Positions 1,287-50,122 of a stretch of 52,092 nucleotides of DNA are shown here, in pieces. A program made the translations under genes and the position numbers. This DNA comes from Escherichia phage flopper: the sequence record NC_048845.1; one strand, written 5' to 3'. The notes under the pieces were generated by a model. That model was given only the letters and a program-made list of their open reading frames with translations, did not search any database and was not told the origin of the DNA. Numbering within the stretch: the first letter of the stretch is position 1; the number at the start of each line of letters is the position of its first letter.

Positions 1287-1685
1287 TTATGCTGGAAGTT
1301 CGAAGTGCGGTGCGTCGAGGAACTTGGCCCATTTCACTGGCTTAGTGAAGGTCCGTTCCCATGTTCCGCCCCAACGAATAACAACTCCAAGCTCTTCTGC
1401 GGCTTTGAACATATGTTCAGCCACAGTTTGGAATCGTTCGAGGTCATTCCAGTCAATTGGATATGGTGCAATATCTAAAGCATTGCCTGACATGTGTCGG
1501 CTAACTGAAACTTTGGTTGCACCCTTCATTAACAGCTCTTGCTGACGCTCATAAGTGCGCAATCCTTCAAGAACAGTTACATCAAACGGCATTGTTTCAC
1601 ATGCACGCTTGAAAACTGCTACCAATGAGGGATTTACACCTTTGAGTCGGTCAAGTGAACGTTGGCCCAGTTTGACGTTAGACAT
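1287..1685 (-). CDS. peptidase M15-family peptidoglycan hydrolase (L-alanyl-D-glutamate peptidase-like)
   Basis: 132 aa with the SxHxxGxAxD zinc-binding signature (SRHMSGNALDIAP) and a size typical of small phage M15 endolysins; no signal peptide. Confidence 0.65.
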   Translation of the reverse strand: MSNVKLGQRSLDRLKGVNPSLVAVFKRACETMPFDVTVLEGLRTYERQQELLMKGATKVSVSRHMSGNALDIAPYPIDWNDLERFQTVAEHMFKAAEELGVVIRWGGTWERTFTKPVKWAKFLDAPHFELPA

Positions 1686-2705: not shown

Positions 2706-3422
2706 TTACAGCTTCTTGATAAGCTCTGCGGATTTGCTTGCGGCAGCTTTCATTTCATCGCGTGCGGCTTTAGTGATTGATGCCTTGTCCACGCGAATGT
2801 TGCAGTTGCTGATTGCAATCTTGCCATCTTCTGTCGGTGCAAGCTGGGATAGTTCCAGCATTTGCTCCAGCTTTTGCAGAAGAATACGTTGTGCTTCAAT
2901 TGCATTTTGAATATTTAGAGTTTCCATAACTGCTCTTACCTTTCTTGAATAAGTTCCAGATAATGTCAGACGTACTTGCAAACCTTTTACGCCATCATAG
3001 TCAATATTGACTTTGTTGAATGGAGAATTTGGATGCTTGTACACATTTGTAACAGTTGCCCAATTGGCGTTGTACCAAATAACATCACCAACTTCCACAT
3101 CTTTTCCGAGAACATCTTCTTCATCGGATACTTTCTGCTTATTGAACTCTTCTACAGGAAGGAATACTGGAGTTACTATTGGAGTTATTTGGTTGGAAAA
3201 CTCAATTGTTGGAGTTTCCGAAGCTGGTGGCCTGTCCAACACTTTGACTATGCGCTCAAACTCAAAATTGTAATATCCACCAGAATATTGGAGTTGAACT
3301 ACAGAACTAAATCGTACAACCCTTTCAATTAAATATTCTCTGTTGCTGTATACTAGTACGTCCCCAGCTTTAACTAAATTGGCAGGTATTTCGACAAATT
3401 TATTTGCCATGATATTCCTCAC
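2706..3422 (-). CDS. hypothetical protein
   Basis: 238-aa ORF; start ambiguous (ATG at 3422 or 3410). Confidence 0.5.
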   Translation of the reverse strand: MRNIMANKFVEIPANLVKAGDVLVYSNREYLIERVVRFSSVVQLQYSGGYYNFEFERIVKVLDRPPASETPTIEFSNQITPIVTPVFLPVEEFNKQKVSDEEDVLGKDVEVGDVIWYNANWATVTNVYKHPNSPFNKVNIDYDGVKGLQVRLTLSGTYSRKVRAVMETLNIQNAIEAQRILLQKLEQMLELSQLAPTEDGKIAISNCNIRVDKASITKAARDEMKAAASKSAELIKKL

Positions 3423-3531
3423 GCATTGTTGAACAGTGTTTGCACACCCAAATGGTTACATAATCGTTTTCGTGTGAAATTTCCCAATTATGTAGCCCTA
3501 TAAAACATAGAATTTTCATAGGGCATCTCCA

Positions 3532-3906
3532 TTAGAACGGAATGTCGTCGTCGAAGTCTTTCGGCTCGTTCGGGTTGTAGTTGCTCTGCTGTTGTTGCTG
3601 AGCAGGTGCTTGCTGTTGTGCAGAAGGTTGCTGACGTTGCTGTTGCTGTTGAGCGGCAGCTTGAGGTTGAGCTTTGGCTTTAGCCTTCTCTTCACGCTTA
3701 CGCATCATTTCATCAACCTGTTCCTGAGTCATGATGGTTAATGCAAGTGAGGTAAACTCATTACCATTTGCTTGCTTGTTCCAACCAGATACCCAATACC
3801 AGATTCCGTCAACGTTAATACGCCCACGAATGTCGGGATGTTTTGGGTCTTTCTTGAAGCCGTTAGGACCGATGATGCCAGTGTTTACATCTGAATATTG
3901 TGCCAT
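3532..3906 (-). CDS. small SSB-like protein with SSB C-terminal tip
   Basis: 124 aa; Gln-rich linker and C-terminus NEPKDFDDDIPF, matching the E. coli SSB tail (...MDFDDDIPF); the N-terminal domain is only ~65 aa. Confidence 0.55.
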   Translation of the reverse strand: MAQYSDVNTGIIGPNGFKKDPKHPDIRGRINVDGIWYWVSGWNKQANGNEFTSLALTIMTQEQVDEMMRKREEKAKAKAQPQAAAQQQQQRQQPSAQQQAPAQQQQQSNYNPNEPKDFDDDIPF

Positions 3907-4565: not shown

Positions 4566-4580
4566 AAGTTGTTATTCACA

Positions 4581-4597
4581 CTCAACTAATGTTAGAT
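4581..4597 (-). promoter_or_regulatory. conserved intergenic motif copy
   Basis: CTCAACTAATGTTAGAT 16 nt upstream of the start at 4565. Confidence 0.35.
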
Positions 4598-7530: not shown

Positions 7531-8360
7531 CACATGCAACTAATGATAAATGGACATGCTTAATTGCAACTAATTCATCTGCCAAATAGACGAATTTTGT
7601 CACAATTAAACATGCGTCATTAATTACAGGTTTACTCCCACACTTAACGTATTTGGCACATTAAGATTGGAGCAAGCAGGTACGGAAAACCGACCATGTA
7701 CAGCATAATAAAACTAATTAAATAAAGGGTTTTATCCCAATATTGTCACAATATTACATGCGATGATAAAGCCTTCGCTTGGCTGGAAGCCAGTATTCAT
7801 GCGGGTTGCAAGAATATTGGGTCAATACTGATACAGCTATTACATGCGAAATTGGCACAAATACTGTTACAAAATTAACATGCCAGATTGGTAGACGATT
7901 GTATCTTCGAGGTGATTAGTCCTCTAACAATTCTGCCACATTCCAACATGCCAATTTGTAGCAATATTTACATGCCATACTGCGACAATATTGTCACAAT
8001 ATTTGTTGCTCAAAATCGGGCGGGCTACGGGATTAGTTTCGCGGCTTTGCTCCGACTCTTCTCTTCTTTCGAATTCTGATTGAAAGAAAGAAGCATGTCC
8101 AAAAGTTCCAATATTACAAAAGTTATCTCCCGGCTTGTGGGTGGGCCTTTATAATAGGAGATGGAGCAATATTGTCGCAATTGAACATGCTTTAGTTGAA
8201 GAACAGTTTCGGATGATAATCCTACTTCACACATGGTTGCTGGAACTTTGTCCGGCCAAAGACAGGGAGTTCAATGATTGCCACATCATTACAACACTGT
8301 ATGTTTAGTTGACATGCTGAAATGTTTCTAGAATGATTTCAACATGACATGCGGAATACT
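7531..8360. repeat. cluster of at least 12 ACATGC half-site repeats in a non-coding region (candidate origin/regulatory region)
   Basis: Plus-strand ACATGC (often as ttACATGC / aACATGCc) recurs about 12 times in ~830 bp, plus aatattgtcacaatatt-type elements and a hairpin cttctttc-N11-gaaagaag near 8058-8095. Confidence 0.5.
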
Positions 8361-8381
8361 TCTCCGTATTCTGTTACTTCA

Positions 8382-8402
8382 CATCCAACTAATGTTACAG
8401 AT
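8382..8402 (-). promoter_or_regulatory. conserved intergenic motif copy at the edge of the ACATGC-rich region
   Basis: CATCCAACTAATGTTACAGAT. Confidence 0.35.
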
Positions 8403-8711: not shown

Positions 8712-10652
8712 TTATTGACAGAAGTAGTAAGCGTGTTCGCTCATCAGAAGCTCTTCGGTTACGATGTTCTCATGATACATCTGAATGCCACCAAGTTGCT
8801 TAGACAGATTCTCGAATTGATTGTTGGTTACGAAGATTTCAACATATGCTGCACGAATAACTTCCATCATGCGTGGAGCATCAGCTAAGCAGCAACGGAA
8901 ACAATCGTGGATTGAAGTAAAGCCACGAAGACCAGCTTCTTTAGCTTTAACTGCAACAGTACGAGCAACCAATGCGTCAATACCTTGGATGTAGTTAACA
9001 ACGAAGGTACGCTTGAACTCTTCTTTAGTTGGATTGGACTCACGAATGGTCCAAGGCTTATTCTCCTGAATCTGACCAAAGATGACACGAGTTTGAGAAT
9101 CAACACGAATGCTGAATGCCTCACAGATTTCACGAGATGGGAAGCAAGGCTTCATTACAACCTGACCATCAGTGTGGCGATATGTGATGTACTCTTTGCC
9201 AAGTTCAACACAACGGTTGTATGCAGCATCAGCAGCTTTCTCGATGAACATGTTAATCTTAGCACCCAATGCGTTATGGATTGCTTCTACACACAGTTCA
9301 GCAAATGCCTCAGCTTTCTCCATAGGAATCTGGAGAGCTTCTGTCATGTAGCTAATGAAGTCAGAAGAACCAGTCAATGCAGCTTTACCACCACCATATT
9401 GGATAGCCATGTATGGAGTTTTGATAAACTTACGACCAGCTTTCGGATTCAAGAATTCATCCATAATTTCAGGAGATGGCTTCATTGAAGAACGGTCTAA
9501 TAACTTCAACAGTTCACGAAGAGATAACTGGTATGGGTCAGATGCTTTAGTCTCAGAATCAACCAGACCTGTTGCACGAGCCATTTCCATGTTACCAGCA
9601 ATGAATGCCAGATATTGAGTACCAGAACATTTAGCATCTAAGCCAAAGCCTACACGAGAATCGCATTCACCTGTAGTCTCGAACTTGAACCAATCCAGAG
9701 CCAGACGAACATAAGTGAATGGCTTGGAAGGACGTTCAGCTTTAGGCATGTTCATCATGCGAGCAAGTGAACCAGCTGGATTCTGAGCAACATAAGTTAA
9801 ACGCTTAGCACTGCACCACTCACCACCGGAAATATCTTCCAGCTCTGCCATGAACATGTTGTATGCAATGGTAGTAGAACCATCTTCGTTAAACTTCTTA
9901 ACGATGTTCTCAACATTGTGAGAATACAAGCAACGAGCAAAGTCAGAGGATTGTGGGTTAGGACCAGCACATGCTACATGATACAGACGACCACGGTTAT
10001 CAGCGAAGTAGTCAGAATACAGCTTATCCTGATTCATCATTGCTACAGCATTGTTCCAAACATGAAGTTCAGTCTGGATTGCTTCTGGCACCTGCAAGCC
10101 ACCATAAGTACGTTGCTCAAGCATGGACTGGATGATGCGAACCATCTCAGTCTCCACATGGTACTCAGTATCTTGCAGGAATTCGATTGCAGCTTTCAGA
10201 GTTTTGGATGGCTTAACTTTGCCACCTTTAACGAAAGGCTTGCGACGAGATTCAGATGTAACACGCTCAGTGAATGGCACTGCTGTGTCTTTGGTTGTAA
10301 CCAGTTCAACCCATGTATCAGTTTGTTGGAATGACTTGTCTTCGTTCATGGTGATGAATCCAAAGTGCTTAGCCAAACCAATGAGGTTGATAGCTGGGTC
10401 AACATAGTGCATTGCTTTCAAATCGTTGTTATAACGGTTGGCATCAGCAATAGAAGCAGAAGCCAGCTCAACCATCGCGATGGCAGGAACAACGTCATCA
10501 CGAGTGAAAGACGTCATCATCTTGAAGATGGCTAAGGCAGCAATAGCACAAGTCTGTGGCTGCATATAGTTCTGTTTCTCTTTGGCACGATATACCAGAG
10601 CAGTGATAGCAGGAACAACGGATTTGATAGTTTGAGTGGTGATAGTAGTCAT
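8712..10652 (-). CDS. single-subunit (T7-like) DNA-directed RNA polymerase, short form
   Basis: 646 aa with motif A-like DAKCSGTQYLAFIAG, motif B-like RKFIKTPYMAIQYGGG and motif C-like IHDCFRCCLAD; GGAG RBS 8 nt upstream of the ATG. Confidence 0.8.
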   Translation of the reverse strand: MTTITTQTIKSVVPAITALVYRAKEKQNYMQPQTCAIAALAIFKMMTSFTRDDVVPAIAMVELASASIADANRYNNDLKAMHYVDPAINLIGLAKHFGFITMNEDKSFQQTDTWVELVTTKDTAVPFTERVTSESRRKPFVKGGKVKPSKTLKAAIEFLQDTEYHVETEMVRIIQSMLEQRTYGGLQVPEAIQTELHVWNNAVAMMNQDKLYSDYFADNRGRLYHVACAGPNPQSSDFARCLYSHNVENIVKKFNEDGSTTIAYNMFMAELEDISGGEWCSAKRLTYVAQNPAGSLARMMNMPKAERPSKPFTYVRLALDWFKFETTGECDSRVGFGLDAKCSGTQYLAFIAGNMEMARATGLVDSETKASDPYQLSLRELLKLLDRSSMKPSPEIMDEFLNPKAGRKFIKTPYMAIQYGGGKAALTGSSDFISYMTEALQIPMEKAEAFAELCVEAIHNALGAKINMFIEKAADAAYNRCVELGKEYITYRHTDGQVVMKPCFPSREICEAFSIRVDSQTRVIFGQIQENKPWTIRESNPTKEEFKRTFVVNYIQGIDALVARTVAVKAKEAGLRGFTSIHDCFRCCLADAPRMMEVIRAAYVEIFVTNNQFENLSKQLGGIQMYHENIVTEELLMSEHAYYFCQ

Positions 10653-10722
10653 TTGTAAGTCTCCAAGATTGTGTATGATTTAACTGAAACGGATTATAAT
10701 AGCGTAGCCATTACACAATTCA

Positions 10723-10740
10723 CAACCAACTAATATCACA
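10723..10740 (-). promoter_or_regulatory. conserved intergenic motif copy (candidate phage-RNAP promoter) upstream of the RNAP gene
   Basis: caACCAACTAATatcaca matches the repeated cacATCCAACTAATGTTtCAGA family. Confidence 0.35.
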
Positions 10741-10899: not shown

Positions 10900-11115
10900 T
10901 CAAAAAATAAAAATTAATATTGCCACAATTCTAGTCTCGTTAATATTGAAACAATTTGAGTCTCATTAATTCTGTAGCAATATTGAAAATAAAAAAAAAA
11001 ATTATAAAAAAAAATTATTTCATAGTCGGACTTCTGTTCGAACAAATTTCGGCGAGATACAGCTGACCGACCATGAACGAATTTCTATCCAGGTACAGTT
11101 GACCGACCATGTACC
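10900..11115. repeat. A-tract plus 13-bp direct repeats between nrdB and the RNAP gene
   Basis: aaaaaaaaaattataaaaaaaaattattt (about 10981-11010); tgaccgaccatg x2 (about 11063-11075 and 11100-11112); tagcaatattg elements. Confidence 0.45.
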
Positions 11116-11259
11116 ATTTGGTTTTAACTTTACGCATTCCTAATATTACTCTTAATATTGTAGCAATATTGGGAATAAATAAATATTTAATTTACTTGTT
11201 TTATTCTAGTTCAAAGAGAAACGACGCTAACGCATCGAATCTCTTCTCACATTTAATCG

Positions 11260-12360
11260 TTAAAGCTCAAATCCACCCAGAGCATTGGTGTCCACTTCGG
11301 AATCAATCTGCCCAACAAGGTACGAACTAATCTCCGTTTCTTGTGGAGCAACCTGTACAGCATCCGAATTCAACCATGCGTTAATCCAAGGAATCGGGTT
11401 AGTAGCACCTTTGAATGGAGCATCCAATCCAACTGCTTGCATACGAATATTTGTGATATATTCCACATATCCGCACAGAATTTGCTTGTTTAAGCCAATC
11501 ATTGAGCCATCTTTGAACAAATAATCAGCCCAATCTTTCTCTTGTTGGGCCACATTTTCGAACATTAGTTGGCATTCTTGGCGACATTCTTTAGCAATTT
11601 CGGCCATTTCTGGGTCATCAACACCACTTGCAAGAAGGTTCAGCATGTGTTGAGTTCCGGTCAAATGGAGTGCTTCATCACGAGCAATTAGGCGAATAAT
11701 CTTGGCATTTCCTTCCATTAACTTGCGTTCAGCGAAGGCAAATGAGCAAGCAAAACTGACGTAAAAGCGAATTGCTTCCAGCGCATTAATGGACATGAGG
11801 CATAAATACAGCTTCTTCTTAAGCTCACGAAGAGAAACTTTATCTTCATGCAGATGCCACATGGAAGTTAGATGTTGAAGCTCGTCATAATATTGGGAGA
11901 TGCCGATTGCACGCATTTTAATGTGCTCATTCTCCACAATTTCATCGAAAATTACACTTGGGTCTGTCACGATATTACGGATAATATGCGTGTAAGAGCG
12001 AGAGTGAATTGTCTCTGAGAATGACCAAGTTTCAATCCAAGTTTCCAGTTCAGGAATGCTCACAATTGGTAGCAAAACTGTAGTTGGTCCACGTCCCTGA
12101 ATGGAATCAAGGAGGATTTGATAGCGCAAGTTGCTTGTGAAGATGTGCTTCTCGCATTCAGGCAGACCAGCATAGTCAATTCGGTCCTGACTAACATCAA
12201 CCTCTTCAGGTCGCCAAAAGAATGATAACTGCTTCTCAATTAACTTCTCGAAGATGCTATACTTCTGTTGGTCGTATCGAGCAACGTTAACGTTCTGACC
12301 AAAGAACATTGGTTCTAATAGTTGGTTATTCTTGGTTTGTGAAAAGGTAGTGTAAGCCAT
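11260..12360 (-). CDS. nrdB: ribonucleotide reductase class Ia small subunit (R2)
   Basis: 366 aa closely resembling enterobacterial NrdB along its length (by recollection; identity not computed); ATG overlaps the upstream stop as TAATG. Confidence 0.9.
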
Positions 12361-12914
12361 TACAGATTTCCTAGATACTCATAGAATTTATGGCCACCAT
12401 AACGTCCCAAACCTTTAACATTCTTGAAGTTGCACTTCTCTGATGCTGTACAAAAGTGGGTTGCTTTGGTGACAGAGGGTTGATTAAATAATACAAAAGA
12501 GATTGCAACATTAATGGTGTCCAGAACTTGTTGTTGTTCTGTGGCATAATTAATCTTTGCTACATGCTTCCATTGAGCATTCTTCTTCTTTGCTTCTCGT
12601 GTCCATGCAAATTGATTGCGTTGATAGACAACATCACAAACGGTGTTAGCGAATGGCTTCCCGAACTCTGTTCTATTACGGACGACATTAGCTACCAGAA
12701 TCTTTCCATGTTTGTCTTCTCCGCGAGCTTCATACCAGATAACTTTAGTATAGCATTCTAGCTCTTTTCGTTGTGAAGAAGATAGTTTCAGACTTCCATT
12801 TAAATAAGAATGACTTGCAAAATCTGTAATAGCAGAATTCACTGCCCCAACCGAAGCTGGGGCGTTGATGTGAACTAAAGCTGTCAGAACTGCAAGGACT
12901 TTGAATGATAGCAT
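12360..12914 (-). CDS. SleB/CwlJ-family cell-wall hydrolase with N-terminal signal sequence (probable endolysin)
   Basis: YEARGE...G...VANVVRNR...QFAW hydrolase_2-like motifs; hydrophobic N-terminus [24 protein letters not shown]; directly downstream of the holin. Confidence 0.7.
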
Positions 12915-12931
12915 TCGAGTTCCTTATCATT

Positions 12932-13273
12932 TCATCGTGCCTTCTTGAACCACGTCAAAGGATTAAGTTGTTTGATTGCGCCAGAGAAACTTTCCCTGAC
13001 AGTTGTGATAATGAGGTTTGCACCGATGACACCAATCACAATAGCCAGAACTAGCTGCATAGTGACGTTAGTCGTGAAGGTTTCAAATGTGCCAGCAACA
13101 TGAAAGGCAAACAAGCCGATTAAGCTGCACAGCGCCGCATCCAGCAGCGCCTTGCTCAAGCCTTCACTTTCATATGCCCCACGGATTAAGGCCGTCAGAC
13201 CGGCCAATAGCCCGTGCCATACGCCGTATTGGTGCATCAGGTCCACAAACATCTGAATGGATAAGCGTTCCAT
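12932..13273 (-). CDS. class I holin (lambda S-like)
   Basis: 113 aa from the internal ATG at 13273 with AAGGA RBS; IRGAYESEGLSKALLDAALCSLI parallels lambda S [23 protein letters not shown]; several TM segments. The longer ORF to 13381 would overlap the fibre gene. Confidence 0.65.
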   Translation of the reverse strand: MERLSIQMFVDLMHQYGVWHGLLAGLTALIRGAYESEGLSKALLDAALCSLIGLFAFHVAGTFETFTTNVTMQLVLAIVIGVIGANLIITTVRESFSGAIKQLNPLTWFKKAR

Positions 13274-13280
13274 GATTTCC

Positions 13281-14318
13281 TTAAGCCGTCCGTTTCCAGA
13301 AGGCATAGTAGTGTACGGAGTTACATACATTGAGTGCAGTCCCGTCGCCAGTTGAGGTTGTTTCATTGCTGCTAGGGCCACCAGTGGTTAGCGGTGCACC
13401 TCCCGTCCATCCTACACTAGGGCCACCACTTGTACCTGTGAAGTATGGAATGTCCACAGTGTGTGCATGAGCGCCAGTAGAGTTGGTAGAACCGCTTATC
13501 GAATGTGTGTGAGCACCAGCAGGGCGAGTGTTTACACCACTTTGGTTTTGGTTAATGGTGGCACCACCGCCAGCAGCAACAGAGACAGCCCCACCTATTG
13601 AGTGAGTGTGGTCCCCAGCAGATGACGTACTTCCACTTACACTGTGAGCGTGTTCACCAGATGAACTTGATGCAACTGCCGCATGGTCGTGGTTGATGGT
13701 GTGAGTGTGGTCCATCGTGTGTGAGTGGGCTGCAATACCGTGAGTGTGGTTCTGCATCCCATGCGTGTGGCCTGGTAGGTTGGCTACAGCAATGGTGGCG
13801 GTATCAGACCCACCTACTGAACCAATCTGGCCAGCAGTTGTGCCTGCTTCTGGGCCAGTTGCAGCACGGGCAGAGCGACCATCGGTGATTTGTTCCCACA
13901 CAGTACCAGTGAACATGTTGTTCGGGTTAGTGGCATTATCAAACTGGAGAACAATTCCGATTGGGTAGATTGAGTTATAAATGTTGTTTGCATTTATAAG
14001 CTCTCTCCAAGTCGCCCATGACCTGTCACCATCACCTCCTTTTTGAGAACGCATCCACATCCTTAAATCGTTAAAGTTTGTGTATCTCTGTATGCAATTC
14101 CCAAGAGTACCGGCACTAGTAAGTAACACTTCCAAGTTACCTGCTGAGGCCCCAGCAGGATACCCATTCTCAACTGTTGCATATGCAGCTATGTTTTGGA
14201 AGAATGTTCCTACATTATCCTTGCCCCACTTATCATTTATATTGCTGTCACCTAAACCAACTGCATCTTTAATGTAGTGTTCGTTAACCAGCGCATCTAA
14301 AGAATAACCTTTAGCCAT
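13281..14318 (-). CDS. tail fibre protein with His-x-His repeat tip
   Basis: 345 aa with a run of HxH motifs (GHTHGMQNHTHGIAAHSHTMDHTHTINHDH...) as in T4-type fibre tips. Confidence 0.65.
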   Translation of the reverse strand: MAKGYSLDALVNEHYIKDAVGLGDSNINDKWGKDNVGTFFQNIAAYATVENGYPAGASAGNLEVLLTSAGTLGNCIQRYTNFNDLRMWMRSQKGGDGDRSWATWRELINANNIYNSIYPIGIVLQFDNATNPNNMFTGTVWEQITDGRSARAATGPEAGTTAGQIGSVGGSDTATIAVANLPGHTHGMQNHTHGIAAHSHTMDHTHTINHDHAAVASSSSGEHAHSVSGSTSSAGDHTHSIGGAVSVAAGGGATINQNQSGVNTRPAGAHTHSISGSTNSTGAHAHTVDIPYFTGTSGGPSVGWTGGAPLTTGGPSSNETTSTGDGTALNVCNSVHYYAFWKRTA

Positions 14319-14326
14319 TTTGAATC

Positions 14327-15703
14327 CTATAAAGTTGAAACTTGCTTAGCAGATAGTGGTGCTGACCAGACTCGGAAATTACGAAGGGCAGTGACCCTGT
14401 CTACGTATGACCCAAGATTTATCAGCGCTTTTCTGCTGTTACTGTCGGCTAACTTCGCATCACCAGGTTGGGAAGCAACCAAAACGCCATTTACATATAT
14501 CTTGAAAGTGCCATCATAAGTGGCAACAATCCTGTTCCAAGCGTTCGGAGTCAACTTGTTTTCAGAATATGCAAATTCAGCGCTGACTCCAGTGCTCACT
14601 TCCGCCTCTATAGACAGTCCACCGTTTTGGCGTACAAGCACCCTTGCTGCACGTAACCCTATTGTAAACAGCCAACCAGTACTTGCTAGTGGGGTTGGGT
14701 AGTAGTAATCGAAAGCTATTGTATACTGTGAGCCACCGATTACGGCACCGGAGCTGCTATATACTTCTCCAGAGACTACCCCAGACGCATCAAACGAGAA
14801 GGCACCACCAAGGTTTTGGTTGTACACAGGCACTCGGTCAGAGTTGTTGTATACGATGCCAACACCACGAACAATATTGATTGAGTTAATCAACGTCATT
14901 TGGAAATCTGGTTCTAAACAGGCATACTCAGGTTCTTGTGCTGCCTTAATACCTGGGAAGCTCAGTTTCGTTACAATATTCGACTTACTTGCAGCAGTGC
15001 CAGTTTCTGCATTGCCCGTGGTCCCGTTGATTCCGAGGTAGTGGCTTCCATTGCGAAGATACAGACCACCATCGTTCACAATCTGTGCAGTTTTGGAATC
15101 ATTCAGATACACAGTTGTGAAAGTAACTTCACCAGTGTATTCACCGCCAGTTGCAGGAACAGCACCAACCTGAGTTGCAGTAAGTTTGTGTGGGTTGTTA
15201 TAGTCCGTTACGTGGGCTTGAACCATTGCACGATAGTTGGCAACAATATTATCCAGTTCGGACTTATTGTATGCACCAATTTGTGCAGCAGTTACTTTGT
15301 GCGGGTTTGTAGTTACATCTGCAATGTGTGCATTAATTGCTGCAACAATTGAGTCGTAATTCGCACGAGAAACTTGAATGGAGCTAGGACTCCACTGTGC
15401 AGAGTTTGCACTTGGGCGTAGTGTTTTGTTAGGGCTGGCAACAGTACAAACATAAATCGTTTTGTTTGTTTCGTCCCAAGCCAAACTACCAACGCCATAA
15501 CTTACATCATTTCCCCACTCAAAGATTCCACGCTCTGCTTGTGCAAGCATTGTGGTGTCAATCTTATATTGCAGGTAGTTAAGAACCTGATAGGTCGGAA
15601 TCTCCGCAACCCAGCCCTTGAGGTATTTTTCATCCCCTGGGTCACGTCTTGCGACAGAGTTGTTTGAAGTCCAGACTCGGTTCAGTTTAGGACGAATCGC
15701 CAT
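14327..15703 (-). CDS. tail fibre protein
   Basis: 458 aa, Gly/Ser/Thr/Asn-rich, in the fibre block. Confidence 0.55.
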   Translation of the reverse strand: MAIRPKLNRVWTSNNSVARRDPGDEKYLKGWVAEIPTYQVLNYLQYKIDTTMLAQAERGIFEWGNDVSYGVGSLAWDETNKTIYVCTVASPNKTLRPSANSAQWSPSSIQVSRANYDSIVAAINAHIADVTTNPHKVTAAQIGAYNKSELDNIVANYRAMVQAHVTDYNNPHKLTATQVGAVPATGGEYTGEVTFTTVYLNDSKTAQIVNDGGLYLRNGSHYLGINGTTGNAETGTAASKSNIVTKLSFPGIKAAQEPEYACLEPDFQMTLINSINIVRGVGIVYNNSDRVPVYNQNLGGAFSFDASGVVSGEVYSSSGAVIGGSQYTIAFDYYYPTPLASTGWLFTIGLRAARVLVRQNGGLSIEAEVSTGVSAEFAYSENKLTPNAWNRIVATYDGTFKIYVNGVLVASQPGDAKLADSNSRKALINLGSYVDRVTALRNFRVWSAPLSAKQVSTL

Positions 15704-17494: not shown

Positions 17495-18652
17495 TTATAC
17501 CGTTACGTCAGTGTAGGTTATATTGGCAGCAACGCCACGAGCACGCTTATCAATATCCAAATCAATGGTTGCTGTTCCAGTTGGGTTTGGAGCAATACCA
17601 ATAAACAAGGAATCAATTTCAAGCGACTGTGTTGCAGCCATAATTGGAGCAAACATGTTAGACCATACTACACTCTGCCCTGGTTGTAGGGAGTTGAGAT
17701 AGTTAACAGTTGCTTCGGTCAGTTGACGAATAGCATCGTTAGAACTCAAGTTGGCATTTGCACGGCGACGGAACGTACCTTTGACATAAATGTCTGTGTA
17801 AGTTGGTCGGCTGAAATGAATATCGTGCGGATAGCCTTTTGAGTCTGACACAGTGATTGTAATATCGCCATGAGTAGGAACGCCACCAGTTTTGGCATTG
17901 TAGATTCGACGGGCAATATCATTATTGGTGCCGCCATCAACTACAACAAATACAGTGCCCGAAGGCTGATTGCCAATAGGAGAGCCGGTATCATTATCAC
18001 GAACACGAATGTAATTAATATCGAGGTCAGCGAGTGAAGCATAGATGGCTTCGACTGTGGCTGTGCTACTGACTGCCGTAGTCTTTTCTCGACGTGCTCG
18101 AAGTTGTGGGTCTGGCTCATAGTTAATACCTGTCTCACCAGCTGTTTCATTGTTAACAGAAGCCCAACCAGCAACAGGAGTTACAATTTTGTTGATGGTG
18201 TTAGGTGCGATATAATACTCACCTGGCTCTTCTGCAATAACAGTTACGTCACCTGGAAGTGTTACGTCTGTGTCAAGCACGAAGCGCATTGTTCCATCAG
18301 TTACAACAGAACCAGCAGGAACAATAGTCCCTGTATCACCTTTGCACAGAACAGTTGCTTGTGAGGGTTTATCAACATATCGAACAGTGTTTGTTAACTC
18401 ACAAACGTTATCCAGCCCAACACCAGATACAGCACCTGGACGGAATGCGTTGAATACTTGTTCGGCCTGTTCCCAGCACGAAGCTATTTCGTCTGCCATA
18501 ATTCCAATATATTGTCCATCGGGGGATTCCGGACTTATATCAAAGTTGGAACCAAATGCAGCAATAAATTTGTTATTAAGGCTTGATACAACGTCGGCCA
18601 CAGGTTTACGAACAAAGCCGTTCTCTGTTACGCCGTATTTGATTGTTGCCAT
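17495..18652 (-). CDS. baseplate J-like protein
   Basis: 385 aa following the gpW-like gene, as in the P2/Mu-type W-J-I order. Confidence 0.6.
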   Translation of the reverse strand: MATIKYGVTENGFVRKPVADVVSSLNNKFIAAFGSNFDISPESPDGQYIGIMADEIASCWEQAEQVFNAFRPGAVSGVGLDNVCELTNTVRYVDKPSQATVLCKGDTGTIVPAGSVVTDGTMRFVLDTDVTLPGDVTVIAEEPGEYYIAPNTINKIVTPVAGWASVNNETAGETGINYEPDPQLRARREKTTAVSSTATVEAIYASLADLDINYIRVRDNDTGSPIGNQPSGTVFVVVDGGTNNDIARRIYNAKTGGVPTHGDITITVSDSKGYPHDIHFSRPTYTDIYVKGTFRRRANANLSSNDAIRQLTEATVNYLNSLQPGQSVVWSNMFAPIMAATQSLEIDSLFIGIAPNPTGTATIDLDIDKRARGVAANITYTDVTV

Positions 18653-18999
18653 GTTAAGAATTCCGTAATGTCGCCATAGTCAGACAATGCAGTAAAGGAG
18701 ATTCCAAGTTTTCTGGCTCGATAGTCTGCATCAATATCTATAGATATTAGTTGCTGAACACCAGCAGTTCCACGAATGATATTGGCTATTGCTGCCTCAA
18801 TGTCCGAGGGACGCACTTGCTTTGTGAAGATTGCTTCGAACCACGGCAAGCCCAACGAACTGTCGAGCTTCCATTCTCCGAAGATTGTCAGCAATCTGCA
18901 CTTAACCAATTGAGCGACCTGAGCAGCACCTGAAATACGAGTTGTTCCACGACCAATAATAATGTCGTGGTTTGAATCAAGAGCTAAATTTCCAGCCAT
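18628..18999 (-). CDS. baseplate wedge protein (gpW/gp25-like)
   Basis: 123 aa; size and sequence character fit gpW/gp25-like proteins. Confidence 0.6.
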   Translation of the reverse strand: MAGNLALDSNHDIIIGRGTTRISGAAQVAQLVKCRLLTIFGEWKLDSSLGLPWFEAIFTKQVRPSDIEAAIANIIRGTAGVQQLISIDIDADYRARKLGISFTALSDYGDITEFLTWQQSNTA

Positions 19000-19814
19000 T
19001 ATTTCATCGGCCCAACGTCGCCGCCTTCTGGGTTAGTGTGAGTGTGGCCATCAACCTTAATACCATTAAGAGTGAGGGAACCAGTTTGGACCATGTTACC
19101 ATCCATCTTAAAGTTACCAGTGAACGTTGCAGTGGAGCCGTCTTTAGTCCCAGATACAGCCATGCCGCCCATCACTGTTAAAGATTTTGTAACGGTCGTA
19201 TCGCCATCCAATGTAATCTGCGGCGCTTTAACTGTAGCTTGCGACGTAACTTCAACGAGAATCTCCGAATCTTTTGTGATTTGAATCTTCGCAGCACCAG
19301 TAATGATTTCAATTAAACCATCACCATGCAGTGTTAGTCTTTGGCTCCTGTCTGCATTACGCAGTTCTGCTACTCCACCATTAAATCCCGGAATAACTTT
19401 AGTCAAAGGCTGAGTCCCAATGGTACATACGGCAGCATTGTGTGAGAACAGTTGGCTGAACTCTGGGGCAGGTCGCCCGTTTATTAAGCCAGCACTACTT
19501 TTATTCTCTGACAACCAATGGTCTATTCCTCGCTGGGAGAAATGGACATAACATGGAGTGCCATCTGGAACCGGATGAGTTAAACTCCAGCCGCCACCCT
19601 GAATAAATTGAACAGGAACACCCTGCAACCTTTGTTTTGGCTGCAAGGTGTAGGCTTCGGCATAACCCACGAACAAGTTTTCGATTGCAAGCTGGACTTC
19701 ACAAGTCTGTGTTGCTGCATCGAAGTTGTAGATGTGTCCTGGATAACTTGTGTTAATATCAGGAGCATTTTGGTTATTGTTATGACTAGCCACGTTCAAG
19801 TACACTCTCGTCAA
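18999..19814 (-). CDS. baseplate spike/hub protein (gpV-like)
   Basis: 271 aa with beta-rich C-terminal region ending GHTHTNPEGGDVGPMK (His-x-His at tip). Confidence 0.55.
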   Translation of the reverse strand: MTRVYLNVASHNNNQNAPDINTSYPGHIYNFDAATQTCEVQLAIENLFVGYAEAYTLQPKQRLQGVPVQFIQGGGWSLTHPVPDGTPCYVHFSQRGIDHWLSENKSSAGLINGRPAPEFSQLFSHNAAVCTIGTQPLTKVIPGFNGGVAELRNADRSQRLTLHGDGLIEIITGAAKIQITKDSEILVEVTSQATVKAPQITLDGDTTVTKSLTVMGGMAVSGTKDGSTATFTGNFKMDGNMVQTGSLTLNGIKVDGHTHTNPEGGDVGPMK

Positions 19815-20148
19815 TAATGAATAGGTAGAGTTGTCGGTAGCTTGTTACTTCTTCACCAGGGAATACTGTGTTAGCTGCATACATGTTTGGGAGAGGTGTC
19901 TTGTATTGCTTAAGAATATCAATACCGCATCGAATAGGGATTCCGAATATTTTATTCGTGGCTCCCCAAGCTAAGTCAAACATGTAGCAGTTTAAAGGTT
20001 CGTTTAAATATAGTGCAGACATTTTAACTGTTACACCATTAAACTCAAACGACACATCTTTCCTTATGTTGTAAGGAACACTTTTCACATATCCAGGGGG
20101 CAGAAGGTCAGCAATCTGTTTTAGGGCTTGATGTTCCTGCTCAATCAT
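19786..20148 (-). CDS. hypothetical tail/baseplate protein
   Basis: 120 aa in the tail block. Confidence 0.4.
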   Translation of the reverse strand: MIEQEHQALKQIADLLPPGYVKSVPYNIRKDVSFEFNGVTVKMSALYLNEPLNCYMFDLAWGATNKIFGIPIRCGIDILKQYKTPLPNMYAANTVFPGEEVTSYRQLYLFIIDESVLERG

Positions 20149-21032
20149 AGAATACGTCCCTTGATAGAAGAAAGTGGAGAAGCGAGTTTGCTCAACTTAC
20201 CTTTCAAGTTGGATAACTGTTTGGTTGGAGGAGTGCCAAGAGCACCAAGTCCCGGAAGTGGAACACCCCCAAGAACACCCATCCCCAAACTCTGCGCAAC
20301 CTTTGCAAATTCGGAGTAGTCAGACATTGATTCCATTGCCTTACGAGCTTCGCTGGCAAGAGCATCTTCTCCTACTGTTTGCAGCTCTTCAAACAAGATT
20401 TCAACCGACAACATTGCAGAAGTCATTTTATCATGTTTGGTTTTGATTGAGGTTACTACACAATTCAAATAGGGTCCCAGAATGGTGGAGATGTATAACT
20501 TCTGCCCCGTAACACGGAAGCTGTTAAACAAATCGTAAGTAGACTGGATTCGGTTGCTTGTCTCAAATGCAGAAGCAACACCACCAGCAATACCACCAAG
20601 AATTGGGATAACTGGACTATTGAAGATTGCACCAGAAGCAACAGACAAACCTTGTACAGATGCAGTCCACATGGATGAGTTCTGCATGTTGACAGCAACA
20701 GCGGTTAGCTTAAGCACCCTGTTCTGATTAATAACATGGTCGCTAACCAGGAACCCAGAACTAACAGGGAACTTGGTTACAGTTGTTTCCGATGCGTGTT
20801 CTTCGCTAACCATAGCATCGAATTTAAAGGAGTTAAAACTTTCGGTGGCAGACTCACCAACAACAGGTAAGCTCTCAAGAGATTTAGCAAACCCGCCAAA
20901 TAGCCCTGACTCCTCTTCCTTCTGTGTTGCAGGTCCGTTGGACCACATAACAATAGATGGATGATGCCCATAGCTGAAATTCTTCAAGCCAGAGGACACA
21001 CCACCAATGAGGTCGGTATCAAAGATAGACAT
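20145..21032 (-). CDS. tail/baseplate hub protein
   Basis: 295 aa between the tape-measure-like gene and the baseplate genes. Confidence 0.5.
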   Translation of the reverse strand: MSIFDTDLIGGVSSGLKNFSYGHHPSIVMWSNGPATQKEEESGLFGGFAKSLESLPVVGESATESFNSFKFDAMVSEEHASETTVTKFPVSSGFLVSDHVINQNRVLKLTAVAVNMQNSSMWTASVQGLSVASGAIFNSPVIPILGGIAGGVASAFETSNRIQSTYDLFNSFRVTGQKLYISTILGPYLNCVVTSIKTKHDKMTSAMLSVEILFEELQTVGEDALASEARKAMESMSDYSEFAKVAQSLGMGVLGGVPLPGLGALGTPPTKQLSNLKGKLSKLASPLSSIKGRIL

Positions 21033-22126: not shown

Positions 22127-22154
22127 TGCAATATACCTATTGAAATTAATACAT

Positions 22155-22172
22155 ATTCAACTAATGTTAAAG
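22155..22172 (-). promoter_or_regulatory. conserved intergenic motif copy (candidate phage promoter)
   Basis: ATTCAACTAATGTTaaAG lies between the tape-measure stop and the next start, just downstream of the hairpin at 22179..22192. Confidence 0.35.
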
Positions 22173-31276: not shown

Positions 31277-31705
31277 TTAAGACTTCGGCGTAATAGCAAT
31301 CTCTTTAGTTGCAGTCACGCTGGAGGTTGTTTTGTTTGTTGCCTTAACCGTGGCAGAGGTATCGGTAGTTGTCTCATTTAAGACGGTTACAGTACCATTT
31401 GCAGCCACAGAAACGCCAGTCACAGGAGGCGTAATAGCGTAGGTGTAGTCTGTTGCTGTAGAGTTACCAAACTTAAACAGTTTGTCTACAGTTACAGTGG
31501 CATCAGTAGAAGACGCATCAGCCGTTACAACTCCATCTACAGCAGACACCGTAGGTGCAGGAGGCTTAGGCTTAATCGTAATCTGTTTGGATGCAGTTAC
31601 GCCAGACTCTGTTTTATTTGTTGCCTTGATTGTCGCAGAAGTGGCTGTAGTCGTTGCACTGAGTACAGTCACAGTGCCGTTTGCCGCCACAGAAACACCA
31701 GTCAC
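31277..31705 (-). CDS. Ig-like (BIG-type) tandem-repeat domain protein
   Basis: Two near-identical ~48-aa repeats (VTGVSVAANGTVTVL...ATNKT...) with a third copy upstream in the same frame, open to 31870 without ATG/GTG/TTG. Confidence 0.55.
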   Translation of the reverse strand: MTGVSVAANGTVTVLSATTTATSATIKATNKTESGVTASKQITIKPKPPAPTVSAVDGVVTADASSTDATVTVDKLFKFGNSTATDYTYAITPPVTGVSVAANGTVTVLNETTTDTSATVKATNKTTSSVTATKEIAITPKS

Positions 31706-31851
31706 GGGAGGTGTAACAGCGAAGTTATAATCTGTTGCCGCAGAGTTCTCAAACTTAAACAGTTTGTCTACAGTTACAGTTGCATCAGAGGCAGATGCGT
31801 CCGCAGTTAAAGCCCCTGCAACAGCAGATACTGTAGGAGCTGGAGGTGGCG

Positions 31852-36944: not shown

Positions 36945-37122
36945 AATCCACTAATGGTTGAGTTTGCACGGGATTGATGCGAATGATGCTGCCCAAACCA
37001 GAATCAGCCTTTAAATACAGGCGGTTTAGCGGCATATATGAATCACAGATAGGACATTGCTGCGTTATGAAATCATCTTCTGCAATTTCATAGTGGCAGT
37101 TAGGGCATTGTATTGTGCGCAT
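36937..37122 (-). CDS. zinc-ribbon protein
   Basis: 61 aa with CPNC...CPIC; 8-nt overlap with the terminase start. Confidence 0.4.
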   Translation of the reverse strand: MRTIQCPNCHYEIAEDDFITQQCPICDSYMPLNRLYLKADSGLGSIIRINPVQTQPLVDCD

Positions 37123-42139: not shown

Positions 42140-42412
42140 TTAATCGACTTGCAACACAGCAAGACGGAAGTCATATCCAACTAATGCTTCGGTCAGCTCT
42201 TCAATTGAAGACGTTGCCGAAATTAATGTTTGGATGTTTTTGAATGTCTCATCATTAAATGCTTGAGACTGTGGGTCAGACGAAGCGAATACTTTGTCCT
42301 TAATCTTTTCAAGGAACGCCATTACAGCGTCCTTTGCAGGAACTTCGGAATCAGCAGCAAACATATGATGCTCTAATTCCTGCATATCGAAAATTGAATA
42401 TACAGTTTGCAT
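42140..42412 (-). CDS. hypothetical protein
   Basis: 90 aa; its 3' end carries a copy of the conserved motif (42175..42192). Confidence 0.4.
   Translation of the reverse strand: MQTVYSIFDMQELEHHMFAADSEVPAKDAVMAFLEKIKDKVFASSDPQSQAFNDETFKNIQTLISATSSIEELTEALVGYDFRLAVLQVD
42175..42192 (-). promoter_or_regulatory. conserved motif copy (candidate phage promoter) inside the gene end
   Basis: ATCCAACTAATGcTTCgG about 66 nt upstream of the start at 42109. Confidence 0.3.
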
Positions 42413-46886: not shown

Positions 46887-47117
46887 TTATTTTAATGACG
46901 CCTGAATTTCTTTCATCGACGCATTTAGTACAGAACGCTTTTCATATTCGCGTTGATTGTACGTGTTTGTCAGTGCTTCCGCAGCTTCTATTGACAAGAT
47001 TGCAAAACCACCAAAGGCATTGCGAACTTCTTCAATATCCATGTGCAGGACTTCACTGGTAATTTGGCTGGCTATTACGGCCTTATAAATCTCTTCGGCA
47101 ATTTCAGCAGTTTTCAT
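46887..47117 (-). CDS. hypothetical protein
   Basis: 76-aa ORF. Confidence 0.4.
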   Translation of the reverse strand: MKTAEIAEEIYKAVIASQITSEVLHMDIEEVRNAFGGFAILSIEAAEALTNTYNQREYEKRSVLNASMKEIQASLK

Positions 47118-47374
47118 GTTTCTCTCCAGTTAAAAATTTAAGTAAGTGTCCTGACGTGGACTATTACGAACATTACAAAACATTGGCTTAAATGATGTTT
47201 CCACTGCGGCCAAGACACTTATTAAATTTGATTCGAACCGCCCAAGTGAATCAGCCTTGTTTATGGGGACCATCGGGGAAAAGTATAAACCCGCTTAATG
47301 CTCGCATCATGTTTGAACATTAAGAACCCTCGACTTGCATATTTCATGTGTATAGGAACATAGTCTGGATTTTG

Positions 47375-47393
47375 AATCCAACTAACTTCGGGA
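47375..47393 (-). promoter_or_regulatory. degenerate copy of the conserved motif
   Basis: gAATCCAACTAActtcggg. Confidence 0.25.
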
Positions 47394-48481: not shown

Positions 48482-48509
48482 GAGGACTCCATGTTATTGT
48501 TGAAAGTGG

Positions 48510-50042: not shown

Positions 50043-50122
50043 TTGTATATACCTTATATTGAATAGTTTTGCACGCCACGGTGACGTGACTTAGATAAAA
50101 ATTAAAGAGCCTTTCTCTTTCC

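Follow-up and report, generated by a model that had tools for sequence, protein, structure and literature searches.

The window analysed here, a stretch of 52,092 nucleotides from Escherichia phage flopper, encodes two peptidoglycan-cleaving enzymes that probably act together in lysis: an exported transglycosylase and a peptidase released by the holin, with the holin and a pair of spanins acting as in the mechanism proposed below. The N-terminus of the transglycosylase, a SleB-type enzyme, is most likely a conventional secretion signal that is cleaved off and not a SAR anchor, judging from its sequence and those of its homologues. The computational results cover the identity, synteny and conservation of the genes along with the fold, catalytic motifs and signal-peptide features of their products.

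Lysis genes and their genome context

The window is a complete Carltongylesvirus genome (Chaseviridae), circularly permuted and reverse-complemented, and is ~90–95% identical to the published phages Bp10, ST32, phiEcoM-GJ1, and Mangalitsa. The five ORFs that an earlier note had assigned to lysis were all found where it had placed them and their family matches were confirmed, with HMM E-values far beyond chance. Profile searches and annotated relatives also bore out its description of lysis genes lying in three separate places, i.e., a holin and, after it, a SleB-type hydrolase whose N-terminus resembles a signal, another hydrolase (M15) in the early region, and an overlapping pair of a TM protein and a lipoprotein resembling spanins; the 36 kb by which the latter was said to be separated correspond to 35 kb in the coordinates of the permuted window. 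In the conventional orientation (Mangalitsa), the RNA polymerase comes first, then M15 at ~8.9 kb, the spanins at ~14.8 kb, and the replication genes, followed by the structural genes, the tail fibre, the holin at ~49.9 kb, SleB, and nrdB up to the right end. This split layout is kept throughout the Chaseviridae, including Erwinia phage Y2, and each of the two enzymes is carried by 49 phage records at an identity of at least 60%. The Carltongylesvirus relatives (phiEcoM-GJ1, ST32, Mangalitsa, Bp10, and EcoM1) share all five genes and their order (identities of 99.5% for SleB in EcoM1, 96% for M15 and 90–97% for the i-spanin) and differ in nothing of substance, although their annotations conflict (SAR or non-SAR) and some of their spanins are listed as 'hypothetical'. 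Table 2 of the ST32 paper names both ORF24 and ORF78 'endolysin' and ORF77 the holin. The layout is ordinary and already annotated in near relatives, while its mechanism is a proposal. The gene set forms the standard lysis apparatus of the Chaseviridae, its four functions apparently divided among three transcription units.

The holin (12932–13273, minus strand, 113 aa) was recognized by PF05106, the lambda S family (33.3 bits, cut-off 23.8), and by phrog_126 (1e−17). Its profile match, three predicted membrane spans (uncharged hydrophobic stretches at residues 12–30, 46–63, and 65–92 in the hydropathy analysis), and a basic C-terminus ending in WFKKAR assign it to class I. It is 100% identical to the 'holin' of ST32 and Bp10 and 97% identical to those of phiEcoM-GJ1 and Mangalitsa, and the orthologue of Myduc is annotated as 'Class I holin - three TMDs'. 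The ATG is located 7 nt past the stop codon of the tail-fibre gene, with the ribosome-binding site AAGGAAAT in front. As for a dual start, M1 and M8 both lie upstream of the first membrane span, and inspection of the sequence revealed neither a motif of the Met-Lys-Met type nor a ribosome-binding site preceding M8. A gap of 17 nt separates the holin from SleB, whose stop codon overlaps the start of nrdB by 1 nt (TAATG). A pattern scan of the coding strand detected no terminator-like hairpins anywhere in the run from the tail fibre through holin and SleB to nrdB. One followed by a T-run was found 23 nt past the nrdB stop (11222–11237, minus strand) and probably marks where the late transcript with these four genes ends; this match counts as weak evidence because such hairpins were not above shuffle expectation. 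Scans of the window for sigma-70 promoters and terminators gave matches at or below chance, and alternative-frame ORFs within the holin and SleB genes (e.g., 12745–12930) had no signal, lipobox, or family features.

The genome is divided into units by a 17-nt motif (AACATTAGTTGRATRTG on the coding strand), which occurs nine times (0.65 expected), on one strand only, and is conserved in sequence and position in Mangalitsa (11 matches) and Erwinia Y2 (7 matches). It is a probable phage promoter. The nearest copy upstream of the block running from the baseplate to holin and SleB is situated at 22152–22168 (minus strand), while those nearest to M15 and the spanins are at 4577–4593 and 50122–50138, respectively.

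Both members of the spanin pair are encoded on the minus strand. The i-spanin (48096–48332, 78 aa) matched phrog_1026 'Rz-like spanin' (3e−20), the label it also bears in the RefSeq records of Mangalitsa, phiEcoM-GJ1, EcoM1, and JL1; its N-terminal membrane span (residues 6–23) precedes a helical, charged domain in the periplasm, which bears the conserved motif D-x-E-L-x-x-x-x-R at its C-terminus. The o-spanin (47963–48172, 69 aa), an Rz1-like lipoprotein (phrog_1275, 5e−18), has a signal and the lipobox I-V-S-C18 with Ser at +2, leaving a mature length of 52 aa. Its gene starts within the i-spanin gene in another frame (77-nt overlap), so that all sequence features of a two-component Rz/Rz1 spanin of the 'overlapped' architecture are present. 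PM1, Myduc, and Y2 have kept the same pair: the o-spanin homologue of PM1 (51% identical) overlaps the i-spanin gene as well, and its Myduc counterpart is annotated as 'putative o-spanin'.

The second hydrolase (1287–1685, minus strand, 132 aa) lies among the early genes, two genes upstream of an anti-restriction gene (453–1001). It matched PF13539 (38.3 bits, cut-off 25) and phrog_465 'endolysin' (2e−54), and phmmer against the PDB retrieved EndoT5 (2MXZ, 1e−19), 8Q2G (7e−23), and ChiX (5OPZ, 2e−17). The zinc and catalytic motifs are intact (H54-x6-D61 and D125-x-x-H128), the N-terminus is not hydrophobic, and the hydropathy profile shows neither a signal nor a membrane span. Profile, motifs, and the small, single-domain architecture are those of a predicted soluble EndoT5-like L-alanyl-D-glutamate endopeptidase. 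The neighbouring ORFs (988–1278, 1678–1947, 1937–2170, and 2167–2517) were considered as a T5-style holin/antiholin and rejected, having no matches to membrane-protein or lysis profiles.

The predicted secretion signal of the SleB-type enzyme

The SleB-type enzyme (12360–12914, minus strand, 184-aa precursor) scored 58.5 bits against PF07486 Hydrolase_2 (E-value 1.1e−15, cut-off 27) and 4e−20 against phrog_938 'endolysin'. Its AF2 model has a pLDDT of 85, with values below 50 for residues 1–21 only, and the top PDB fold matches in Foldseek were the SleB catalytic domains 4F55 and 4FET (probability 1.0, target-normalised TM-score 0.65–0.68). Across 27 homologues, four residues (E62, R64, G65, and E66) do not vary. 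E62 belongs to the motif Y-E-A-R-G-E and aligns with the first Glu of the GESRGE motif of Bacillus SleB, which we take to be the catalytic residue there. With a score over the Pfam gathering threshold, the fold, and the catalytic Glu, the protein has the attributes of the Hydrolase_2 family and is predicted to be a lytic transglycosylase with E62 as its catalytic Glu. It resembles Bacillus SleB, a germination-specific lytic transglycosylase, in the fold of the catalytic domain and in having an E-x-R-G-E motif, but has only ~18–20% identity to it, lacks its N-terminal peptidoglycan-binding domain and, unlike it, would target vegetative Gram-negative peptidoglycan. Among its cysteines, C54 and C93 are invariant, while C155 and C160 occur in most homologues.

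Residues 1–20 (12855–12914, minus strand) constitute a predicted Sec signal peptide, a call made by rule-based analysis together with conservation across homologues. The segment has a positive n-region (MLSFK), an h-region of 11 residues, and a c-region (NAPA), and signal peptidase I is predicted to cut after A18-P19-A20, before S21, or alternatively after VGA24, before V25. An [A/V/S/T/L]-x-A site falls within residues 18–25 in all 61 full-length homologues, and the hydrophobic core measures 9–13 aa in 60 of them (20 in the remaining one; mean 11), with ~60% strongly hydrophobic residues (L/I/V/F/M). In five homologues, P0024, P0041, P0009, pAh6-C gp31 (PQKAMA before S), and Myduc (SVHA before E), a charge is found inside or just after the c-region, and their uncharged stretch is only 11–16 aa long. 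Y2 gp88 (MRKFFLLILLLMAVPASA before G) and T5p081 (…FSSQA before S) carry textbook signal peptides. The enzyme combines two sequence features expected of a signal-peptide endolysin: a tripartite N-terminus, with an h-region inside the usual 7–15 residues and small residues at −3 and −1, and a muralytic domain with an intact active site.

A SAR domain spans the membrane without being cleaved; it has ~20 residues, is rich in Gly/Ala/Ser, and often lies near a regulatory Cys or a catalytic residue. The earlier note had left unclear whether the enzyme is exported by the Sec pathway in a SAR-like manner; Sec export is upheld as a prediction, via a cleavable signal peptide, while core length, the A-x-A site, and the charges speak against the SAR part. 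Were the protein a SAR endolysin, it would be tethered to the inner membrane by a weakly hydrophobic anchor and freed upon depolarisation by the holin. The GenBank records of Mangalitsa (MN045229) and DE15, made by CPT annotators, do say 'SAR endolysin', and the window protein has an uncharged N-terminal stretch of 25 residues, for which a span predictor may call a membrane span. Nevertheless, this reading is very unlikely: the short core is rich in L/V/I/F rather than Gly/Ala/Ser, the cleavage motif is kept in every homologue, a charged residue trims the uncharged stretch in several orthologues, and the segment and its surroundings contain no Cys or catalytic residue, E62 being 40 residues downstream. 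A weakly hydrophobic, Gly/Ala/Ser-rich span of ~16–22 residues is absent, and a cleavage motif is present. In comparison with the SAR endolysins P1 Lyz, phage 21 R, and phiKMV gp45, the likeness lies in Sec-dependent export ahead of holin triggering, which is predicted here, and the difference in a strongly hydrophobic core of 11 residues followed by a conserved A-x-A. Moreover, the Myduc record from the same annotation group reads 'No TMD - endolysin (not SAR)', and a signal-peptide endolysin from a Fletchervirus was likewise first labelled SAR and afterwards corrected by experiment (PMC7692668). Since all 61 homologues share the signal-peptide features, several with an interrupting charge, the SAR label of Mangalitsa and DE15 is probably wrong.

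Proposed roles of the two enzymes in lysis

In the mechanism that we favour, the end of the late (tail) operon would supply the lambda-S-type class I holin and then the SleB-type transglycosylase, which would be exported to the periplasm, cut by signal peptidase I after A20, and stay latent there, as modelled on the signal-peptide endolysins of Oenococcus phage fOg44 and Campylobacter phage F352. The EndoT5-like M15 peptidase from the early region would meanwhile build up harmlessly in the cytoplasm. Upon triggering, the holin would collapse the membrane potential and open large holes, thereby activating the transglycosylase and releasing the peptidase, so that glycan strands and peptide cross-links could be cut together, and the overlapped i-spanin/o-spanin pair would finally fuse the outer membrane with the inner one. 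What we infer from the computed features is that the enzyme is exported and cleaved, that it is latent until the holin activates it, when the genes are expressed, and that both enzymes contribute to lysis. For F352, a signal-peptide transglycosylase with a class I holin, Sec-dependence and activation by the holin have been demonstrated (PMC7692668). F352 and fOg44 (Lys44) resemble the window phage in that a glycan-cleaving endolysin bears a Sec signal peptide with n-, h-, and c-regions, the activator is a class I holin, and the lysis genes are not all grouped in a single cassette. They differ in that their enzymes are an SLT-type transglycosylase and the Lys44 muramidase, respectively, and not of the SleB/Hydrolase_2 fold, in that a second soluble peptidase is not described, and in that export and holin dependence are experimental there and predicted here.

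A stricter version, in which lysis would obligately need both enzymes and the pre-placed, latent SleB would be effective only with the holin-released peptidase or the loss of membrane potential, is possible but doubtful. Precedent for the two-enzyme mechanism also comes from the rV5-like phages, in which a SleB with a signal peptide adjoins a holin candidate, the second enzyme differs between phages, and Rz/Rz1 are not linked (PMC7344957). The authors of the CB7 study found the SleB-like protein to be toxic when expressed alone in E. coli, which counts against strict latency in either version.

EndoT5 is the characterised endolysin of T5, and the match of M15 to 2MXZ allows the view that the peptidase alone is the endolysin here as well, with the secreted SleB an accessory periplasmic enzyme dispensable for lysis; the accessory role could be, for example, peptidoglycan remodelling or help under some conditions. 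A large-hole holin of the lambda S type would suit such a soluble cytoplasmic endolysin. In T5, the SleB homologue is far from the holin, in the tRNA region and next to the st0 deletion site; this region is presumably dispensable, so SleB may be dispensable for lysis in T5. We nonetheless regard this view as unlikely for the Chaseviridae: it is SleB and not the peptidase that is packed tightly behind the holin in every genome examined, its catalytic Glu and fold are fully conserved, its rV5-like homologues are implicated in lysis in addition to being toxic, and it is the partner that stays the same, with different or unrelated families taking the place of the peptidase.

The converse, that SleB alone is the endolysin and M15 serves early infection or regulates the RNA polymerase in the manner of T7 lysozyme, is more improbable still. 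It draws on the position of M15 among early genes by the anti-restriction gene, ~40 kb from the holin in biological order, and on T7 lysozyme itself, an early muralytic enzyme with a second role in RNA polymerase regulation. Early-expressed cytoplasmic endolysins are, however, normal in T5, T7, and T4. The zinc and catalytic motifs of M15 are intact, and in Aeromonas pAh6-C the M15 gene is inside the late cassette, directly upstream of SleB. The early slot is filled by M15_4 in the window phage, M15_3 in Myduc, and CHAP in PM1, where tblastn detected no M15; that three families of peptidoglycan peptidases occupy it implies conservation of peptidoglycan cleavage and not of a specific protein–protein interaction. 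A T7-lysozyme-like regulator of the phage T7-type RNA polymerase was rejected as unlikely because other genera fill the slot with CHAP or M15_3.

Similar pairings exist in other phages. T5 and T5-like phages (Demerecviridae) possess an EndoT5 M15 as well as a SleB homologue that bears a signal peptide, T5p081 (MKAALLLVAALTFSFSSQA before S), but the linkage is reversed, M15 adjoining the holin and SleB being distal (PMC11180984), and T5p081 is shorter, without the ~30-aa conserved helix that follows the signal peptide in Chaseviridae SleB. In the rV5-like phages (Vequintavirinae; e.g., Pectobacterium CB7, Cronobacter CR3), a signal-peptide SleB-like protein overlapped by the holin candidate is found across the subfamily, either an EndoT5-like M15 or a lysozyme-like protein serves as the second muralytic enzyme, and a classic cassette is lacking, as in the Chaseviridae; the holin candidate is of class II (two membrane spans), and the genomes, which are unrelated, have about three times the size. 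A signal-peptide SleB with an interchangeable soluble second enzyme hence recurs in three unrelated groups, with repeated non-orthologous replacement of the second enzyme and differences in which enzyme is adjacent to the holin.

In returning to the two-enzyme reading, the earlier note's question of which enzyme is the true endolysin is better reframed: the holin and the signal-peptide SleB do not change from genus to genus, whereas different genera have different soluble enzymes in the early region, and this comparison of genomes indicates that the two enzymes are kept together as a pair.

Implications for Chaseviridae

Genes with 90–100% protein identity are already deposited and described, and as a discovery the lysis genes of this phage add little. 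The literature search did not find experimental studies of endolysins, holins, or spanins from Chaseviridae: lysis is not a topic of the announcements of Mangalitsa and Myduc, the ST32 paper contains no proteomics or promoter data, and a UE-M6 holin/endolysin paper was set aside as concerning an unrelated Schitoviridae phage. To our knowledge, very few experiments support signal-peptide endolysins in phages of Gram-negative hosts, and we know of no characterised SleB-type example, nor was one present in the searched literature. For annotation, the Chaseviridae SleB-type enzyme should be named a signal-peptide (Sec-secreted) endolysin and not a SAR endolysin, and the pair that is 'hypothetical' in several records should be relabelled as spanins. 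If the obligate two-enzyme reading were true, phages of Gram-negative bacteria would possess a lysis strategy of a distinct and as yet uncharacterised kind. Coliphages of the Carltongylesvirus type would be tractable for addressing how an exported transglycosylase is kept harmless up to holin triggering and why a soluble peptidase so frequently accompanies it.

Lysis genes and their place in the genome

Positions 11000-15000 matched 45 phage records by megablast, headed by Escherichia phage vB_EcoM_Bp10 (93.8% identity) and followed by JL1, SKA49, EcoM1, Mangalitsa, Bp7, ST32, and others. The - strand carries all long ORFs of the window, and the gene order is that of Mangalitsa (Chaseviridae; Cleopatravirinae; Carltongylesvirus) once reverse-complemented and rotated; the window is therefore a single complete ~52 kb genome from a known genus. 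In the conventional order, the RNA polymerase and the early genes with the M15 peptidase (~8.9 kb) come first, then the spanin pair (~14.8 kb) and the replication genes, and after them the structural genes, tail fibre, holin (~49.9 kb), SleB-type enzyme, nrdB and the right end. Scattered lysis genes are normal in virulent phages, as in T4 (e, t, pseT.2/pseT.3) and T7 (3.5, 17.5, 18.5/18.7).

The earlier note had described lysis genes split over the genome, and all the ORFs it claimed were present on the - strand, each with a significant profile match. The holin (12932-13273, 113 aa; PF05106 lambda S holin family, 33.3 bits, threshold 23.8; phrog_126 'holin/anti-holin', 1e-17), in which simple hydropathy analysis found three uncharged hydrophobic stretches, is followed by the SleB-type hydrolase with its signal-like N-terminus (12360-12914, 184 aa; PF07486 Hydrolase_2, 58.5 bits, gathering threshold 27; phrog_938 'endolysin', 4e-20), and a second hydrolase, the EndoT5-like M15 peptidase, lies in the early region (1287-1685, 132 aa; PF13539 Peptidase_M15_4, 38.3 bits, threshold 25; phrog_465 'endolysin', 2e-54). 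The distant TM-protein/lipoprotein pair consists of a 78-aa i-spanin (48096-48332; phrog_1026 'Rz-like spanin', 3e-20) with a single N-terminal membrane span (residues 6-23, hydropathy) and a 69-aa o-spanin (47963-48172; phrog_1275 'Rz-like spanin', 5e-18) whose lipoprotein signal ends in I-V-S-C18 and is followed by Ser (+2); the two genes, read in different frames, share 77 nt, which is the 'overlapped' spanin architecture. Identity to annotated relatives reached 100% for the holin, 99.5% for SleB, 96% for M15 and 90-97% for the i-spanin. The GenBank Mangalitsa labels are 'L-alanyl-D-glutamate peptidase', 'holin class I', and 'SAR endolysin', with the small overlapping pair as 'hypothetical', a pair named 'Rz-like spanin' in RefSeq Mangalitsa, phiEcoM-GJ1, and others, while the ST32 paper names ORF24 (M15) and ORF78 (the 184-aa protein) each 'endolysin', ORF77 holin and ORF79 RNR beta. 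The lysis gene set is an ordinary one, previously annotated in a known genus, and the earlier description was accurate.

The tail-fibre stop lies 7 nt before the holin ATG (preceded by AAGGAAAT), the holin stop 17 nt before the SleB ATG (preceded by AAGGAAC), and the stop of SleB and the start of nrdB share bases in TAATG. A pattern scan, which is weak evidence, placed a terminator-like hairpin 3' of nrdB and none inside the tail fibre-holin-SleB-nrdB block. The final gene of this late operon (11260-12360, - strand) encodes an orphan class Ia ribonucleotide reductase beta subunit (PF00268, 2e-48), with no ORF of nrdA size in the whole 52-kb genome; at the equivalent position, the annotations of Erwinia Y2, PM1, and Myduc list no nrdB. 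The tail-fibre protein directly upstream of the holin (13281-14318, - strand; Gp10_C and Phage_fiber repeat matches) contains a long stretch of His-rich H-x-H/H-T-H repeats that resemble the metal-binding repeats of T4 fibres.

A 17-nt motif (AACATTAGTTGRATRTG on the coding strand; CAYATYCAACTAATGTT on the + strand) occurs in nine copies against 0.65 expected, always in one orientation (137-153, 4577-4593, 7531-7547, 8380-8396, 10721-10737, 22152-22168, 36942-36958, 42172-42188, and 50122-50138), and the window start (1-13) cuts through an additional, truncated copy. Most copies lie within ~100 nt upstream of an ORF start, most densely in the early region, and equivalent places are occupied in Mangalitsa (11 copies) and Erwinia Y2 (7 copies). 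The motif is probably a phage promoter, in which case M15, the spanins, and holin-SleB would belong to three separate units. A tRNA-like element (48519-48574, - strand) scored 27.9 bits with Rfam RF00005, just below the gathering score of 29, and ARAGORN called no tRNA there; ST32 and phiEcoM-GJ1 are reported with a 95-nt tRNA-Arg at the equivalent position, just upstream of the spanin genes, and the surrounding ~1.5 kb (47100-47960 and 48500-49700) holds no convincing ORFs. In the head-gene region, a tandem duplication (31280-31843; 282-nt unit, copies 77% identical) overlaps an ORF (31277-31705) that may encode a repeated Ig-like decoration domain, since an 'Ig domain containing protein' is annotated at this position in Erwinia Y2.

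Catalytic domain and N-terminus of the SleB-type enzyme

When 27 SleB homologues were combined into a profile, it aligned with two catalytic domains of Bacillus SleB, 4F55 and 4FET (E 2e-5), and E62 of the window (motif Y-E-A-R-G-E) fell on the first Glu of 'GESRGE' in the Bacillus enzymes, taken here as the catalytic Glu (E151/E157 in the two structures); the chain offsets agree with this numbering. The alignment shows no variation at E62, R64, G65, and E66, nor at C54 and C93. The AlphaFold2 model (mean pLDDT 85) had the two SleB structures as its only significant PDB fold matches (probability 1.0; TM-score 0.65-0.68, target-normalised). On the strength of the invariant E62 motif and these SleB-only matches, the protein is predicted to be an active lytic transglycosylase with no domain other than the catalytic one.

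The N-terminus runs MLSFK, 11 further residues, NAPA, the predicted cut, then SVGAVNS. Whether it is an uncleaved membrane anchor, as the 'SAR endolysin' label of Mangalitsa implies, or a cleavable signal peptide was judged by rule-based comparison of 61 full-length homologues (43-98% identity). The hydrophobic core spans 9-13 residues in 60 of the 61 (mean 11; ~60% L/I/V/F/M/W/C), its length and character being kept and its sequence free to vary, and an [A/V/S/T/L]-x-A motif lies at residues 18-25 in every one, best conserved as (A/V)-P-A or A-L-A with S next after the predicted cut. Charged residues in or directly after the c-region in five orthologues (P0024, …SSEASASA; P0041, …AQSAEA, then M; P0009, …MFRANVPA, then S; pAh6-C gp31, MQKYMKLLGILMLLHIFPQKAMA, then S; Myduc SleB, …GASVHA, then E) reduce the uncharged stretch to as few as 11-16 residues, too short for a membrane span. 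Erwinia Y2 gp88 (MRKFFLLILLLMAVPASA, then G) and the T5 homologue T5p081 (MKAALLLVAALTFSFSSQA, then S) carry textbook signal peptides, and AlphaFold2 confidence falls below 50 at residues 1-21 and nowhere else. The two SAR domains compared, from P1 Lyz and phage 21 R, have 20-residue cores with 55-65% Gly/Ala/Ser/Thr. The N-terminus is thus probably a cleavable Sec signal peptide. In Campylobacter Fletchervirus phages, experiments likewise led to a SAR label being replaced by signal peptide; their transglycosylase depends on Sec to be exported and on a class I holin to become active (PMC7692668).

A conserved ~30-residue helix (residues 21-50; 12765-12854, - strand; invariant A33, Y37, L38, G40, and Q48) separates the signal peptide from the catalytic domain in Chaseviridae SleB proteins and is missing from T5p081. 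As a candidate pro-segment or regulatory element, it may keep the exported enzyme latent.

Soluble partner enzymes across Chaseviridae

Among PDB sequences, phmmer matched the M15 protein to the M15C-domain protein 23ri (2e-23), the L-alanyl-D-glutamate endopeptidase 8Q2G (7e-23), EndoT5 (2MXZ, 1e-19), and Serratia ChiX (2e-17). It contains H-x6-D and D-x-x-H motifs, hydropathy gave no signal, membrane span or hydrophobic stretch, and no membrane proteins occur among its neighbouring genes; two genes downstream is the anti-restriction gene. The M15 protein resembles a canonical soluble endolysin, which would depend on a hole-forming holin for wall access. Three genes upstream, a 116-aa early protein (2167-2517, - strand; phrog_35432) with a clear signal peptide (MKTLYIALTILFGVFAFKSEA, then SV) could be a periplasmic exclusion factor or regulator.

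Holin and SleB stand at the late end, with unlinked spanins, in Erwinia Y2 (Loessnervirus), Pectobacterium PM1 (Suwonvirus), and Proteus Myduc (Myducvirus; spanins annotated). The early slot holds M15 upstream of the anti-restriction gene in Y2, a 121-aa Peptidase_M15_3 (PF08291) in Myduc, and a 158-aa CHAP-domain protein (PF05257) in PM1, where tblastn found no M15. The record calls this small soluble PM1 protein (PM1_012, 3328-3804) 'baseplate hub subunit and tail lysozyme'; it also starts the o-spanin (PM1_022, 9837-10016) at a point that leaves out the lipoprotein signal sequence, probably too far downstream. Aeromonas pAh6-C (Nefertitivirinae) has no early enzyme, and its M15-like gene (phrog_1768; H-x6-D and D-x-x-H present) directly precedes SleB after the tail-fibre genes, belonging to a separate M15 lineage closest to endolysins of Aeromonas T7-like phages and Pseudomonas phage Iggy. 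Its late cassette (18519-20567), annotated as hypothetical throughout, runs gp28 (N-terminal membrane span and Gln-rich helix, a possible i-spanin), gp29 (55 aa, one hydrophobic helix), gp30 (the M15 peptidase), and gp31 (signal-peptide SleB); BLAST detected no lambda-S-family holin in it.

By sequence comparison, the invariant core among the Chaseviridae compared is the holin with signal-peptide SleB, and a soluble peptidoglycan peptidase is always present, yet repeatedly swapped for non-orthologous enzymes. Such replacement suggests that the activity, cutting of peptide stems, is conserved rather than one given protein, which argues that both enzymes are in use.

Proposed lysis mechanism

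Similar enzyme pairs are reported in two other groups. In T5-like phages, M15 adjoins the holin and SleB is distal, and the authors leave open which one serves (PMC11180984); we verified the SleB homologue T5p081 in T5. In rV5-like phages, the SleB-like protein carries a signal peptide and is overlapped by a holin candidate; it was reported to be toxic to E. coli and, in phage CR3, to be implicated in lysis. Their second enzyme is an EndoT5-like M15 in some and lysozyme-like in others, with Rz/Rz1 unlinked (PMC7344957).

We consider it reasonably probable that lysis combines a cytoplasmic peptidase with a Sec-exported latent transglycosylase, triggered by the holin and completed by the spanins; export, latency and timing are inferred, as is the share of each enzyme in lysis. 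The cytoplasmic pool of peptidase would build up, probably starting in the early or middle phase, and the transglycosylase would be exported by Sec and processed late, remaining latent. Triggering of the class I holin would open holes and collapse the membrane potential, releasing the peptidase and turning the transglycosylase active, and the spanin pair would then remove the outer membrane.

The present analysis adds that the 'SAR' label of SleB should probably be corrected to signal peptide, and ties the lysis set to the pairs described in T5-like and rV5-like phages. For the family, it points to a fixed holin and SleB with an interchangeable soluble partner.
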